Shown piece by piece: positions 3,150 through 62,410 of a stretch of DNA of 64,000 nt (within the stretch, counting starts at the first letter, position 1; each line of letters opens with the position of its first letter). A model generated the notes under the pieces. The model was not told where the DNA came from. It worked only from the letters and a program-made list of their open reading frames with translations, and ran no database searches. The position numbers and the translations under genes were made by a program. Source of the stretch: Octopus sinensis (taxonomy: Eukaryota); contig NC_043015.1 of assembly GCF_006345805.1 (NCBI RefSeq), positions 21,142,001 to 21,206,000 on the forward strand. Reading direction: 5' to 3'.

Positions 3150-5364
3150 ATATTATTGTGTCTGCTTGGTCCTGAGCTGGAAGAACCGTTACTACGCCTC
3201 ACAAATTGCATAGCGGCATTTCTTCAGCATTTTCGGGCCAAATACAGTTTTTGCCGTGACTTAGCTCTTCATCTCTTCAACCGATAAAATAAATGTTAAT
3301 TGAGCTCTAGGTTCGATGCAATCGAATAGCTTCCACACTCTCGCAAAACTTAGGTCTTTTAACCTTAGCTGAAAGGATTATCTATTCTAGCTGCTCTAAA
3401 AAAAGAAAGAATAGATAAAATAAAAACCAGTAGAGCAGGATTTGGCAACGAAGTAACGGTATTGCAAAAAATATTCGGCGTCAGGCGGTGGAGGCAGTTT
3501 TGGTAGAACCCGCCTTTATTAACAAACATAATCAGCAAGACGAACTTTCATACCCTTTCTCACGTTTGTCTCAATCTGCGTCTCGTCTCGCTACGCCTGG
3601 GTCGAGGTACGTTTTAGCGACTACTTCTAGCAATCCGAGCAACCACATAGCGGTAAAGTATGACTATGCACTTGTGTATACGCGTAAATGTGTGTGTGTG
3701 TGTATGTGCGTGTATGTATGTGTGTGTGTGTGTGTGTGTGTGAACAACTACAATAAACATGAACAGCAACATAGTTTATTGTAGATGTTCATGGCGTTAT
3801 AATATACAACGGTTCACTGATTGACATTTAAAGTGAACTGGCTTTTGTGTGAATGTAATTTATGTGTCTGTGGCATTGTACATTGCTGATGGCCAATGTG
3901 TGTGTTTCTATCTGGGTGAGTGTGTGCGTACGTGTGTGAGTGTGGAAGTATGCGTGTGTGTATGTGTGTGCGCGTGCGTCTGTGAGTGTCGTGAATGAAA
4001 TTATGTGTGACAGTGTGTATGTATATGTGGGCGAATGTAGATAACAGCTTGTCAGCTTGTTACTATTATTCCGGTTCTTGACTATACACACAAACATATA
4101 TAGGTATGCATGTATGTATAAATGTATCCATCCATATATACATATATATATAACGGATATAATATATATATATATATGTGTGTGTGTGTGGTGTGTGTGT
4201 GTGTGCGCGCACACACATATACACAAGCATACAAATACACGGTTATGTACACACACACATATGCGTGTGGGATGGGCGCGTATTTATTACCATTTGATGT
4301 TTGAGACAGGAGTGTGTGTTGTCAACCATACTTGTCTATCCATCTCTCTCCCTCTCTGTCAACACACACATATATATATGTGTATATCTATATGTATGTA
4401 TGCCTATTGTTATTTCTGTGTATGTGTATACACACACACACACATGTGTGTGTGTGTGTGTGTGTACACACATTTGTATATGTAGGTATGTATGTTTGTG
4501 TATAAAACAATGACTGCACCCAGCAACAGGATAAACGAATAATGAATATCTGTCTATCGATCTTTTTATCCATTTTTATCGTTTTTTTTCGTTGCTATGG
4601 TTATTGCTTTTTGTCACCACACATTTCTTTAAACAGACATCACATCACAGTAGTTTCCAACGAATATCTTATAAATGTGAATCAGATCACACCCGATAAA
4701 GCACTCAGCCGAAACGAGTGTAGTGTGAGTAGCTGTAAAAATATATGTAAATGAACTCTACATCTGCATTATATAATATGTATTGACGAAGATGTCCACT
4801 TCGTTTTGTGTGTATTTACAAAGAATATAAGTGTATCTATGTATGGGTATTGTGATAGCACAATTCAAATAAAGAAAGAGTAAAATATTTATTTTAAATG
4901 AATGTAACAGTTATTCGTCTGCAGGTTACACTGGTTTCAGAATGAAGCAGACTGTGAGTTTGTAATGAAATTCTACATTCGTCAGGTCTTTGTAAGTAGT
5001 AAATAAAATTCATTTGTTATTTAGGAATGCCTGACGTATTGTAGGCTTTTTCGCTAGATCTACAAAGAATGATTGTTATATAAATATCGTAATAGCCTGC
5101 GTTTGATTAACTTTTATTCCGTATACAGATTAATAACTCTATATATGTGTGTGCGTCTCTATGTGCATGTTTGTGGGTGTACGTGTACATATACTTATTT
5201 ATGTGTATATTATATATAGATCTATGTGTGTGTGTGGGGGGTGTTTGTGTGTGTGTGTGTGTGTGTGTGTGTGTATGTGTGAGTGTGTGCGCGCGTGTAG
5301 AAAGTTGAAAAGGAACACATGGAAAAAGTCAAGGTAGAAAATGGTAAAATAGTTTTATAAAAAA

Positions 5365-5752
5365 CTAGCAATATCGCCCGGCGTTGCTCGGGTTTGTAAG
5401 GGAAATAACTATATAAGCATTTTTAGATATGTAAAGTATAATAGCCATCTCAATATGACTAACCACAAAGCGGGGGTGTTACTGTAGCTTTTTACGTTCT
5501 GAGATTTAATAATACATTTTTAGAGAGTTACTTATATAATAGCAAAAAATGAATTAAAAATGGGGAAAAATGATGGTAATTTTTTTTAAATCGTAGACTC
5601 ATCGTAGACGCGCGCTAATACCCAGAAGGCCTGGATATGAATCACGACTATAAGATACCCGCTTTTGGTTACACTGCACCGCAAAATGTGGGAGTAGTTA
5701 GGAATCTAAATCGTAGGAGACAGACACACAACTTCACTTTTATATATAAAGG
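5365..5752 (-). mobile_element. Non-autonomous Helitron
   Basis: Minus strand ends CCCGAGCAACGCCGGG hairpin then CTAG, begins CCTTTATATATAAAAG (variant of the TC start), sits between A and T with no TSD, and splits the fold-back arm cleanly. Confidence 0.75.
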
Positions 5753-5898
5753 TATTTCAGTGCCGGATTCAGTCATTGAGACTTTTTCAACAGTAATTTT
5801 TCAAAAGAATATTTGCATAGTATTTGAACACTATGCAAATATTTTTTTAAAAAGGTTTTCTTTTAATTTTTCCAAAATTTAATTGTTTTCCATACTTA

Positions 5899-5934
5899 TA
5901 ATTGAAAAAGTTCCAATGACTGAAACCGGTACTG
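5899..5934 (+). ncRNA. Candidate minimal type I hammerhead ribozyme, U3-A8 variant (helix I degraded)
   Basis: TTGAAAA-AGTT ccaat GACT-GAAA-CCGGTA-CTG; palindromic ACCGGT in helix III, GUA triplet. Confidence 0.55.
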
Positions 5935-6700
5935 AAATGCTTTCTATAAAATTATTTTAGCAATTTCTACTTTGACTTTTTCGATATATATGTATATATA
6001 TATATATATATGTATAAGGATGAAAAAGAACACACGAGTTGATATATATGAACAAATAGGTCAGGATAGAAAATGCTAAAATGATTTTATAAAGAACATT
6101 TCAGTACAGGTTTCAGTCATTTTCAACTGTAACAATTAAATAATTAAATTTAGAAAAATTAAAAGAAAAGTTTTTTTTTAAGAATAGTGGCATTTATAAT
6201 ATTAGTGGCATTTTCCTTGTTTCTGCCTTTCTCTGTCTCTCTTGTTTACTCTTGTGGGTTCGAGGTCGTGGTGAATTCTTGGTTGGGAAGAAGAAGAAGG
6301 AGGAGGAGGAGGATGAGAAGAAGGGGAGGAAGAAGACAAAGAATTTGGGAGTGCCTTGATTGTTGCATTTTGAATGGTCAGTGGAGGCTAGCATTTGCTG
6401 TTCAATTCATGAAAATATTTCTATTGAAAGTTTTGTTTATAGAATTTGCGCAGGTGTTATACTAAAAAGCATTAGTGATGAAGTTAAGAAGGAGAAGGAA
6501 GGAGAAGGGGGTGAAGAAGAAGAAGAAGAAGAAGAAGAAGAAGAAGAAGAAGAAGAAGAAGAAAGAGAAGGGAGAATATGAATGAGTGAAAGTAGTGAGA
6601 TGTTGGATGACTTAAAGTTGGCACGTTATGGAGTATAGCAGTGATTGAGGCTGATTTTTAATGGATTCTTAGGAATTTAATATTTGCGTGTGTATTTGTG

Positions 6701-60206: not shown

Positions 60207-60590
60207 GTGGAGGCGCAATGGCCCAGTGGTTAGGGCAGCGGACTCGCGGTCGTAGGATCGCGGTTTCGAATCCCAGACCGGGCGTTGTGAGTGTTTATTG
60301 AGCGAAAACACCTAAAAGCTTCACGAGGCTCCAGCAGTGGATGGTGGTGATCCCTGCTGTACTCTTTCACCACAACTTTCTATCACTCTTACTTCCTGTT
60401 TCTGTTGTACCTGTATTTCAAGGGGCCGGCCTTGTCACTCTCTGTTTCACGCTGAATATTCCCGAGAACTACGTTAAGGGTGCATGTGTCTGTGGAGTGC
60501 TCAGCCACTTACACGTTAATTTCACGAGCAGGCTGTTCCGTTGATTCGGATCAACCGGAACCCTCATCGTCGTAACCGACGGAGTGCTTC
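60207..60590 (+). mobile_element. SINE family A, full length
   Basis: TGGCCCAGTGG A box, GACTCGCG (TCG Arg-like anticodon), GGTTTCGAATCCC B box; ATATATATAGTT on both flanks. Confidence 0.92.
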
Positions 60591-61134
60591 CATGCATATA
60601 TATAGTTATCTATCGGTGTATGTATGTATGTATGCATCGATATATTGTTTTTATTTATTCACATACGTTCATACATACTATATAAATGCACCTCTAAAAA
60701 CAAATAGAGACACGCACACATACATATACATGCACGCTTTTCTACATATGTACGTATATTTGTACTGGGTTCAAAACTTTACTCATTTCATATATATTAA
60801 ATTTTGCAGTCAAATAAACAGGCAAATAAAAAACAAACACATTTCGAATGAACATGGGCACATAGTCATCAGATACTGTAGCATGGGGTTAAGTGAATGG
60901 TCCGAAGATGGAAGAATGAGGAAAAATTGGGGGAAGAAAAAAATAAATAAACCTTACAATTTTATATTGTAAAATCTGCAAAAAGTATTTCCAGTTGCTG
61001 AAGAAATTTCAAGAAATTGTACACGAATGGTGCTGATATAATGTATTCAGTTATGATCCGGCAATGAAACGTAATAGAGTGTTCTGATACATTTATGTTA
61101 CTATTACTATAGGTGCTGTATATATAAATATAGA

Positions 61135-61460
61135 GACCCCCCATCGGTCATGCCTAATCGTAGGATTGCACCTAGAAAGTTACCCTCCGAGGTACATGTC
61201 CGGGCAAAGTTGTTAAGGGAAGACCAGCTGTCGGACATGCATACCGGCCTCCTCTCTCCACGCCACCAGTGTTATCCAAGGGAAAGGCAAAGGCCGATAC
61301 AGCTGGACACCTGTGACGTCGCAACTCATTTCTACAGCTGAGTGAACTGGAGCAACGTGAAATAAAGTGTCTTGCTCAAGAACACAACACGCAGTCCGGT
61401 CAGTGATTCGAACTCACAACCTCACGATCGAAGCTCTAACCACCGAGCCATGCGCATTCA
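61135..61460 (-). mobile_element. tRNA-derived SINE, family D
   Basis: Minus strand TGGCTCGGTGG A box, GAGTTCGAATC B box, TGTGTTCTTGAGCAAGACACTT central domain. Confidence 0.8.
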
Positions 61461-61549
61461 CATATATAGATATATGTATATATGTATGTGTATATATATA
61501 TATATTATATATATATATATATATATTATATATATATATATATATATGA

Positions 61550-62410
61550 TAATAATATTAGGGAGTAAATCCAAACTTACGGGAAAAATTAGATTTAGGA
61601 TTAAATCAAATTCACAGTATAAATATAAATATAAATTATATTAGAGATAAAACCACTATTAGGCAAATCAAACAACGAAAACATAAACGAAAACATAAAA
61701 ATAAATATAATTAATATAATATACAAAATATATAAAATATAATTTTTAATTTATATTTATAAATTTTTATTTTTTATTTATTTTAAAAATATTTTTAAAA
61801 TTTAAATTAAAAAATTTTTAAACTTTTAATTTTTTAATATTTATATTTATTTATTTATTTATTATTTTTAAAAATAACTCTCAAACAGTTATTAAAGAGT
61901 TTAATATAATATAGTAAGTAAAACCACTACGTACGTGTCATGGCCATAACCCAATTCGAATTACAATAATTTAAATTCAATTAAAAATTCTAATTATAAT
62001 CATAGTCAATCTTCAGGTTAAGATAATAGTTAAATAAATAAGCAAATATATTTAAACAATATTTTTCAAGAAATAAAATAATAAATAAAATAATATAATA
62101 ATATAATAATATAATAATATGATAATATAATAATAAAATAAATATAATAATAAAATTAAAAATAATAATAAATAAATAAATAAATATAAATATTAAAAAA
62201 TTAAAAGTTTAAACATTTATAAATTTAAAATTTAAAAAATAACAAAAATTTATAAATATGAATTAAAAATTTTAAATTTAAATAATTTAATTTTAAATTT
62301 TATATTTTATATATTTTGTATATTATATAAATTATATTTATTTTTATGTTTTGGTTTATGTTTTTCACTGTTTGATTTGCCTAATAGTGGTTTTATCACT
62401 AATATAATTT
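61550..62410. mobile_element. AT-rich fold-back element (long relative of 10255-10565)
   Basis: Arms ~61635-61865 and ~62165-62408; spacer holds a degenerate HHR-like motif; (TA)n flanks. Confidence 0.75.

Follow-up and report, generated by a model that had tools for sequence, protein, structure and literature searches.

The 64,000-nt stretch of the Octopus sinensis genome analysed here (contig NC_043015.1, positions 21,142,001 to 21,206,000 of the forward strand; hereafter the window) carries five inverted-repeat, or fold-back, elements with hammerhead ribozyme motifs in their arms. We conclude that such fold-backs are very probably 5′-truncated insertions of Penelope-like elements (PLEs) with an inverted second arm. 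Two of the families involved, A and C, are the ends of PLEs that bear an open reading frame (ORF). The account as a whole, in which the fold-backs are PLE insertions and the RNA of family C likely starts at a module derived from tRNA-Arg, seems to us probable. As first described, from the letters of the window alone (the sequence-only reading), the fold-back finding is the ordinary, already published footprint of PLEs (PMC4209133, PMC8557442), and what adds to the known pattern is that family C has a tRNA-derived start and that two further families, B and E, have ends of PLE type.

Hammerheads in the window and in the genome

The genome around the window is 2.72 Gb in size, AT-rich, and rich in microsatellites. 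Self-BLAST of the window and inspection of the ribozyme cores bore out the claim of five inverted-repeat elements in three mutually unrelated families, which we label A (5322-5991 and 6018-7616), B (15389-16375), and C (17616-18008 and 21917-22276). Every arm of the five carries a type I hammerhead or its remnant, reading outward and on the opposite strand to that of its partner. Two weaker cases are labelled D (61550-62410) and E (7734-8146). Some boundaries had to be moved: the element first given as 6045-7690 really spans 6018-7616, with 7616-7690 being the end of a family D arm, and 5322-5991 is interrupted by an insert at about 5364-5744.

A minimal type I hammerhead was defined by the core CUGANGA or UUGANAA, GAAA, UH, helices I and II, and a palindromic helix III. 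The invariant core is kept in 6 of the 10 arms (5902+, 6126-, 7524+, 16081+, 17889+, and 22045-) and has lesions in the other 4 (5790-, 15586-, 17704-, and 22210+), and the full descriptor is passed by a single arm, that of family B at 16081+. A first, strict descriptor had no match within the window, and none of the best 150 of 477 matches in an Rfam scan is a hammerhead. As a comparison we ran the descriptor on 1 Mb of the genome, made up of ten 100-kb stretches chosen regardless of content. It gave 24 matches there, whereas three shuffles gave 2, 0, and 0, which puts this class of motif far above the level of chance. The hammerhead arms in the 1-Mb sample comprise 3 of family A, 1 of B, 21 of C, 1 of D, and 0 of E, and the window, with about 12 hammerhead arms in 64 kb, is denser than the genome average in that sample.

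Across the copies collected for each family, the core is intact in 36/46 copies of A, 25/33 of B, 64/121 of C, 23/24 of D, and 16/19 of E, and the U3-A8 variant of the core is found in 46/46 copies of A. Helix I has only two firm pairs in D and one mismatch in A. The helix III words pair with themselves as duplexes and are larger in B and E. Hammerheads of C, D, and E have an extra base between positions 9 and 10.1, and in B, D, and E a single additional base follows helix II, just before G12. The minimal hammerheads of metazoan PLEs (Cervera and de la Pena 2014, PMC4209133) share the type I fold with a short palindromic helix III, the U3-A8 variant seen in A, the extra base between 9 and 10.1 seen in C, D, and E, and the arrangement in opposite-strand pairs 100-700 bp apart, which that paper attributes to truncated PLEs; unlike the hammerheads described in the available part of it, B, D, and E carry the extra base before G12. 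Changes in the helices within families are mostly one-sided, as at the 10.1-11.1 pair of A (28 G-U, 9 A-U, and 7 G-C), and between families the 3-8 pair switches between U-A and C-G. Within families the core nucleotides are about as conserved as their flanks: conservation at core as compared with other non-CpG positions is 0.946 vs 0.955 in C and 0.974 vs 0.965 in A. A core barely or no better conserved than its flanks is expected of dead copies, yet it lends no support and counts as a point against our account.

Families A and C are the ends of ORF-bearing PLEs

Family A is a Neptune-type, ORF-bearing PLE and family C a Poseidon-type one, the types being assigned by the linker motif between reverse transcriptase (RT) and endonuclease. 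In copy L122 of family A, stretches of RT are followed by a CxxxxCxxC linker, a GIY-YIG endonuclease domain (PF01541, E 2e-5), and then the arm. The CxxxxCxxC motif between RT and endonuclease is present in A and absent in C, and a CX2-5CxxC motif at this position is described for Neptune, with Poseidon lacking it, in the part of PMC8557442 available. The GIY-YIG remnant by which the sequence-only reading had linked one family to a PLE is real and lies at 6704-7061, in family A, with 76-81% identity to a Pfam-positive copy. The link is in fact stronger than had been claimed, because A and C are both pieces of ORF-bearing PLEs. The description of the elements as mostly ORF-less and retrozyme-like fails for the four of the five named elements that belong to A and C, and it stands for B only, together with the weaker cases E and D.

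The larger family A element consists of a 5′-truncated Neptune-type PLE at 6018-7250 on the minus strand, with the end of the RT region, the CxxxxCxxC linker, the GIY-YIG remnant, the 3′ untranslated region (UTR), and the pseudo-long terminal repeat (pseudo-LTR), and of an inverted partner at 7263-7616 on the plus strand. The pseudo-LTR of the former has its hammerhead core at 6126, with helix II partly deleted, and an extra tail at about 6018-6045; the partner has no tail, an intact U3-A8 core at 7524, and a broken helix III palindrome. In the smaller fold-back, the 3′ end of the left arm (5323-5365, minus strand) maps to +8 to +50 of the L122 hammerhead cut site, and the arm is then interrupted by the unrelated insert at about 5364-5744, which has no match to the family A reference. 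It resumes at 5745-5820 on the minus strand with a broken hammerhead (core start 5790; A15.1 and U16.1 changed), and the right arm (5821-5991, plus strand) keeps its U3-A8 core at 5902 intact, has lost the 5′ strand of helix I, and ends at (TA)n. We also found the first bases of the insert after a family A end in locus L055. The inverted partner pattern of A was seen in the window copy, L122, and L132, and most family A loci selected by their arms had no inverted partner within 1.5 kb.

Family C was at first recognised as coding in a single locus, since an ORF end upstream of the arm was seen in 1/30 family C loci. When loci were sought with that ORF end, 29/30 continued through a tRNA-like module and an (AAT)n linker to the arm. 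A C unit opens with the tRNA-like module, followed by (AAT)n, the ATG, the hammerhead within the start of the ORF, the tail, the RT, the endonuclease, and the stop, and the next module starts about 30 nt after the stop of the preceding unit. Copy L369 is a complete unit, with its ATG 152 nt past the module, the hammerhead in the first codons, and a broken ORF of 2469 nt. An open frame from the ATG through both the hammerhead and the tail is present in 4/16 C copies that have both marks, and in L369 it continues into the ORF. The RT of C was identified as PF00078 in L098. The C protein is 40% identical to a PLE-type protein of Anolis, and its C-terminal part, which has no Pfam match, is 30% identical to the C-terminus of that protein. 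Protein P0008, from another record and 52% identical to C, keeps the N-terminal words encoded by the hammerhead. All protein-coding copies of A and C that we examined are broken. A young Neptune-type family (L340, L341) was also seen with open frames of 780-883 codons, and it may have been recently active, since a 781-codon frame recurs, with an identical score, at several loci.

The two window copies of C are ends of this element. In the first, a left arm without tail (17616-17785, minus strand; hammerhead 17704 with A14 changed) and a right arm with tail, which starts from the region of the ORF start codon (17853-18008, plus strand; core 17889 intact, helix III palindrome broken), are separated by the element's internal (AAT)n linker (17762-17851, minus strand), which in fuller copies lies between the tRNA-like module and the ORF start. 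The second has a left arm with tail (21917-22125, minus strand; core 22045 intact) and a right arm without tail whose hammerhead is mostly deleted (22170-22276, plus strand). This insertion is flanked by the duplicated sequence GGTATTTCG (at 21901 and 22279) and lies inside a SINE-type repeat. The claim that the elements are nested in microsatellites held for A, B, and E, whose motif-matched 3′ ends run into a TA repeat in 22/22, 19/22, and 9/14 cases, and fell for C (7/41). The window (ATT)n at family C is the internal linker and not a target.

Canonical endonuclease-bearing (EN+) PLEs, with Neptune corresponding to A and Penelope/Poseidon to C, show in the available parts of PMC8557442, PMC3846280, and PMC11167929 the same RT followed by a C-terminal GIY-YIG domain, the same 5′ truncation, the same inverted 5′-truncated partner with a tail at one end and a target duplication, the same hammerhead and ORF start in the pseudo-LTR (here in family C), and the same Zn-finger-like linker motif, which A has and C does not. 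PLEs have been described with inverted partners and tails, with a bias to microsatellites, and with palindromic junctions (PMC8557442, PMC3846280).

The arms of A and C are pseudo-LTR ends of ORF-bearing elements. Paired arms have their 3′ ends outward and meet at a point that varies; only one of the two has the extra tail, and a target duplication often flanks the pair. Outward-pointing pairs were found in 40/87 family C loci; 36 of those 40 have the tail on exactly one arm, and 25/40 share a flank of at least 8 nt, a raw count with no control for chance level. In the 1-Mb sample 12/21 C arms lie in inverted pairs, and extrapolation from 21 arms per Mb gives about 57,000 family C arms in the genome (35,000-87,000). 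The Poseidon protein cuts both DNA strands and starts complementary DNA (cDNA) at two sites within the RNA, one on either side of the tail, and its hammerhead, which lies at the ORF start and is protein-assisted, was not required for insertion in vitro (PMC11167929). A double-strand cut with two cDNA start sites would account for unequal, outward-pointing arms: one cDNA would begin at each internal site from the two cut ends, and both would usually stop early and then presumably be joined 5′ end to 5′ end into a fold-back.

The sequence-only reading treated the fold-back itself as the mobile unit, that is, as a discrete ORF-less ribozyme element that amplifies with both of its arms. All five named window elements are indeed two-armed, and B, D, and E have no ORF. 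Inversion junctions, however, differ from copy to copy, only 40/87 loci of C, 14/29 of B, and 8/19 of E are paired so that about half of the copies have no partner in the sampled locus, and other copies show the arms of A and C running on into sequence that codes for RT and endonuclease. Nor did we see the fixed terminal inverted repeats or shared internal structure of a miniature inverted-repeat transposable element or a fixed fold-back element; arm ends are unequal, junctions variable, and solo arms many. We consider discrete two-armed units very improbable in general and largely refuted for A and C, and we retain the reading of the fold-backs as truncated PLE insertions.

A tRNA-Arg-derived module at the start of family C

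The C unit opens with a module derived from tRNA-Arg, 152 nt ahead of the ATG; both window copies have lost it. The module aligns end to end with the host tRNA-Arg(ACG) gene with a score of 63-65, as against at most 48 in 1000 shuffles; the reference gene was confirmed by ARAGORN, and its isotype was chosen on purpose, the comparison being with that isotype only. In the module, motifs like the A and B boxes survive, with the acceptor and T stems broken. Tandem copies of the tRNA-Arg(ACG) gene, repeating about every 206 nt, occupy about 3.12-3.16 Mb of contig C2 (L307-L317), where most of 105 pattern matches fall.

The 5′ ends of C copies pile up at the start of this module. In the unbiased 1-Mb sample, 9/26 C arm ends pass the first base of the module, and 5 of those 9 arms end within -8 to 0 of its start where about 0.3 would be expected (P 6.6e-6, computed at the truncation rate seen further 3′). 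Among hits selected by the module, 28/34 end at -13 to +6, and 3 extend for more than 100 nt; one of the 34 is the query's own locus. The solo copies L291, L292, L294, and L296 start at -8 to 0 directly inside a duplication of 7-12 nt (read by eye), and the full-length copy L369 starts at the module start, with a short fold-back.

We give even weight to the view that this pile-up marks a transcription start, and slightly less to the view that the module is a Pol III promoter. The C start site would lie near -6 of the module and would be set by the A- and B-box-like motifs, perhaps with help from a TATA-like TTTATAA about 30 nt upstream. From it would come an RNA of full length and also, where the copy is terminal, a short one. 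Since reverse transcription starts internally, such a short RNA could do without a defined 3′ end, and internal initiation makes a read-through RNA from the module a usable template; RNA that starts at the module would then explain the many short SINE-like copies, and the module as a transcription start likely yields them. In its fullest form, in which a tRNA-Arg gene was captured as a Pol III promoter in a protein-coding PLE and drives the template RNA of full length as well as, from any terminal copy, a SINE-like RNA of 270 nt with a hammerhead, the account remains tentative, and we would put it below either of its parts.

Two other explanations of the pile-up have to be weighed. In the first, the module is a passenger of the 3′ UTR, and cDNA folds back on a small hairpin, GCCC-AC-GGGC, and primes itself; deletions then leave an arm that starts at the hairpin, and there is no short RNA. 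The start site does coincide with this hairpin, and several copies are palindromes centred there: the junctions of L025 and L173, among others, are palindromic about the hairpin, and L302, L285, and L369 each have a short fold-back at the 5′ end. With the module start on the hairpin, self-priming alone could cause the pile-up, and it stays a rival; the palindromes at PLE inversion junctions are so read in PMC3846280. The lack of diagnostic positions in short C copies also fits self-priming. On the other hand, the four solo copies named above start at -8 to 0 directly inside the target duplication with no inverted arm, ends beyond -8 thin out at an ordinary rate, and a stop induced by structure would be expected 3′ of the module and not just past its 5′ end. 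We regard self-priming as possible and not the probable cause.

In the second, C RNA starts near -6 by Pol II transcription from the TTTATAA, which overlaps the upstream stop codon, and the tRNA-derived part is only 5′ UTR. A protein-coding RNA normally requires a cap, and the TTTATAA lies about 30 nt upstream of -6. Other PLE pseudo-LTR promoters also look Pol II-type, PLE promoters being reported in the pseudo-LTR and as Pol II-like (PMC2377424, PMC3846280). Against it stands the survival of the A- and B-box-like motifs in a module whose acceptor and T stems are broken. Kept boxes with broken stems are the usual state of a SINE head. The sense strand, moreover, has no column run of at least 4 T in 2656 columns where 5.0 would be expected, a weak point against Pol II; T4 runs in four Neptune controls are at expectation, and the absence of T4 in the short C unit alone is uninformative. 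We judge the Pol II start to be rather unlikely, a little more so than self-priming.

Several observations weigh against a start of C RNA at the module. Neither ARAGORN nor Rfam calls the module a tRNA, and ARAGORN found none in 15 C loci. Only 9 arms enter the hot-spot count, and the ends of four, which have internal deletions, were re-read by eye. The T-run deficit is weakened because G runs are absent as well (0 vs 3.2 expected) and because T runs per single copy do not differ significantly from synonymous shuffles (P 0.15-0.8). Variants are shared between 41 short and 24 long C copies, with the clearest differences tracing to the query used, so there is no separate SINE lineage. In each of three RNA-seq runs (2026), between 5,364 and 7,897 reads fall on a C copy. 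The two mate directions are about equally represented, depth follows copy number, and there is no pile-up of molecule starts or ends; because the strandedness of the libraries is unknown and short uncapped RNA may have been lost, these data are no evidence either way. RNA editing in C, suggested by an excess of A>G and T>C, was rejected: other change classes rose too, and the DNA run came from another organism. Since 12/21 sampled C arms are in inverted pairs, copies that are transcribed would form many double-stranded RNA stems.

In the parts of the papers on canonical EN+ PLEs available, only Pol II-type pseudo-LTR promoters are described, whereas the C unit starts with a tRNA-Arg-derived module and an (AAT)n linker. 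Literature searches returned no tRNA-headed, ORF-bearing PLE; they covered papers and not repeat databases, and the supplements of PMC4209133 and PMC8557442 may list these families. The schistosome repeats SM-alpha and Sj-alpha (PMC6765202) combine a Pol III-type promoter with a hammerhead in a short repeat, as C putatively does, but are non-coding tandem repeats, whereas the C module belongs to a protein-coding PLE and the short copies have PLE tails. Helenus, Ajax, and Cassandra (PMC10886601) likewise have sequence derived from a small-RNA gene in a terminal repeat, with a proposed Pol III promoter; these are non-autonomous LTR elements, whereas family C is an ORF-bearing PLE. The octopus repeats OR1 and OR2 have been named as CORE-SINEs (PMC4824008, PMC4758252). 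Short C copies resemble tRNA-derived SINEs (SINE2), OR1 and OR2 among them, in their A/B-box-like tRNA head, their length of about 270 nt, and their target duplications, and differ from them in that their 3′ part is a PLE pseudo-LTR and not a LINE tail and that they show no lineage separate from the autonomous element. SINEs are known as parasites of LINEs. If our reading of family C is true, an ORF-bearing PLE with a tRNA-derived start shows a way for SINE-like elements to arise within a PLE, and C would be the ORF-bearing parent form that links PLEs to tRNA-headed, PLE-mobilised short elements; its start site would give a testable promoter for a class with few known transcription cases.

Families B and E are repeat units with PLE-type ends

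The repeat units of families B and E resemble retrozymes and have PLE-type ends that lie in (TA)n. The unit is about 491 nt in B and about 478 nt in E, with periods of 491-492 and 472-483 nt in partial tandems. Two hammerheads in tandem were seen in L081 and L090 (B) and L169 (E), and most copies are about one unit long. The longest ATG-to-stop frames have 43-71 codons. Both families have two alternative 3′ ends, about 95-100 nt apart and in TA repeats. Among B pairs with both ends whole, 8/10 have one short and one long end (counted by eye, with the window copy included), as do 5/8 E pairs, the remaining 3 of which have a cut arm; one end of each kind per pair is a PLE signature. Partners within the sampled locus were found at the 14 of 29 B loci and 8 of 19 E loci given above.

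In the window, the family B left arm (15389-15814, minus strand) has the short 3′ end and a hammerhead at 15586 with G8 changed to U, and the right arm (15812-16375, plus strand) has the long 3′ end, about 95 nt further, with the intact hammerhead at 16081, an extra A before G12, and its end at (TA)n. The weak case first given as 7734-8265 ends at 8146 and proves to be two halves of one hammerhead of family E on opposite strands: the 3′ half (7734-8001, minus strand; GAAA at 7990) with the long 3′ end, abutting (TA)n, and the truncated 5′ half (8026-8146, plus strand; core start 8128).

B and E could instead be long pseudo-LTRs of autonomous PLEs whose ORFs fell outside our sample. Family C, too, looked ORF-less until 1/30 loci showed the ORF end, and the sampled loci held only 1.5 kb of flank. 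However, the sequence past the long 3′ end returns to the unit's own 5′ part at a fixed period, and no family sequence was found outside the unit in 29 B or 19 E loci. Since the units loop back on themselves, there is no place for an ORF, and we consider this alternative improbable.

Animal retrozymes have been defined and a PLE origin proposed for them, with the mechanism left open (PMC7229834; bioRxiv 10.64898/2026.07.22.740005). Like B and E, the animal non-LTR retrozymes described there are ORF-less units with one type I hammerhead each, in partial tandems, of low GC, in a PLE-rich genome. Unlike those, for which circular RNAs of about 170-400 nt are reported, B and E have units of 478-491 nt and are known here from genomic DNA. 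Most of their copies are scattered and close to one unit in length, with an inverted partner and either of two 3′ ends in (TA)n, a direct mark of PLEs that is absent from the consulted passages on retrozymes. As repeat-unit retrozymes, B and E may be cut as dimers by their own hammerheads, and B, E, and D would be ORF-less RNAs that borrow the machinery of a TA-targeting PLE. The PLE-specific ends of B and E directly support, as a footprint, the proposal that PLE enzymes are used by animal retrozymes. The sequence-only reading had called for autonomous PLEs that share the arms; ORF-bearing PLEs with these arms were found for A and C, and none turned up for B, D, or E among 30 GIY-YIG loci, which speaks against the borrowing, or in the two PLE remnants of the 1-Mb sample. 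The 3′ ends of B, D, and E have a word like CCCTAAT/CTCTAAT just before the TA repeat (window 7734, 15389, and 61550 and sampled loci), which hints at a common partner.

Family D and further features of the window

Family D is about 1.5 kb long and AT-rich, with an internal duplication, and is not a simple circle. Of the five longest open frames per locus in four extended loci (all of at least 110 codons), none maps clearly onto D. For the weak case at 61550-62410, the hammerhead exists in the long arm only. That arm (61550-62085, minus strand) has a tail and a hammerhead-like motif at 62016 with a long helix II, a palindromic helix III, a weak helix I, and A13 changed in the window copy; the short inverted arm (62161-62410, plus strand) has neither hammerhead nor tail. 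The family D arm end next to element A (7616-7690, plus strand) matches 62339-62410 and 10494-10560, and a short family D fold-back of arm ends only lies in (TA)n at 10258-10560.

A further fold-back around (TA)n (16705-16805, minus strand, and 17071-17165, plus strand) has a U3-A8 hammerhead-like motif in both arms, with core starts at 16745 and 17123. Just beyond element D, at 62609 on the plus strand, is an intact-looking minimal hammerhead with a CAATTG helix III, and related motifs occur in the 1-Mb sample. Stretches of that sample from contigs C3, C5, C12, C16, and C23 hold several more hammerhead families with a long helix II, some in tandem, whose palindromic helix III is CGTACG, CAATTG, CGGCCG, or CATATG. 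The window also contains an inverted pair of 97 nt, 92% identical, around TA/TG repeats (9325-9421 and 9922-10018) and a tandem duplication at 48699-49571 with a period of 408 nt, 98% identical, which includes a SINE-like piece.

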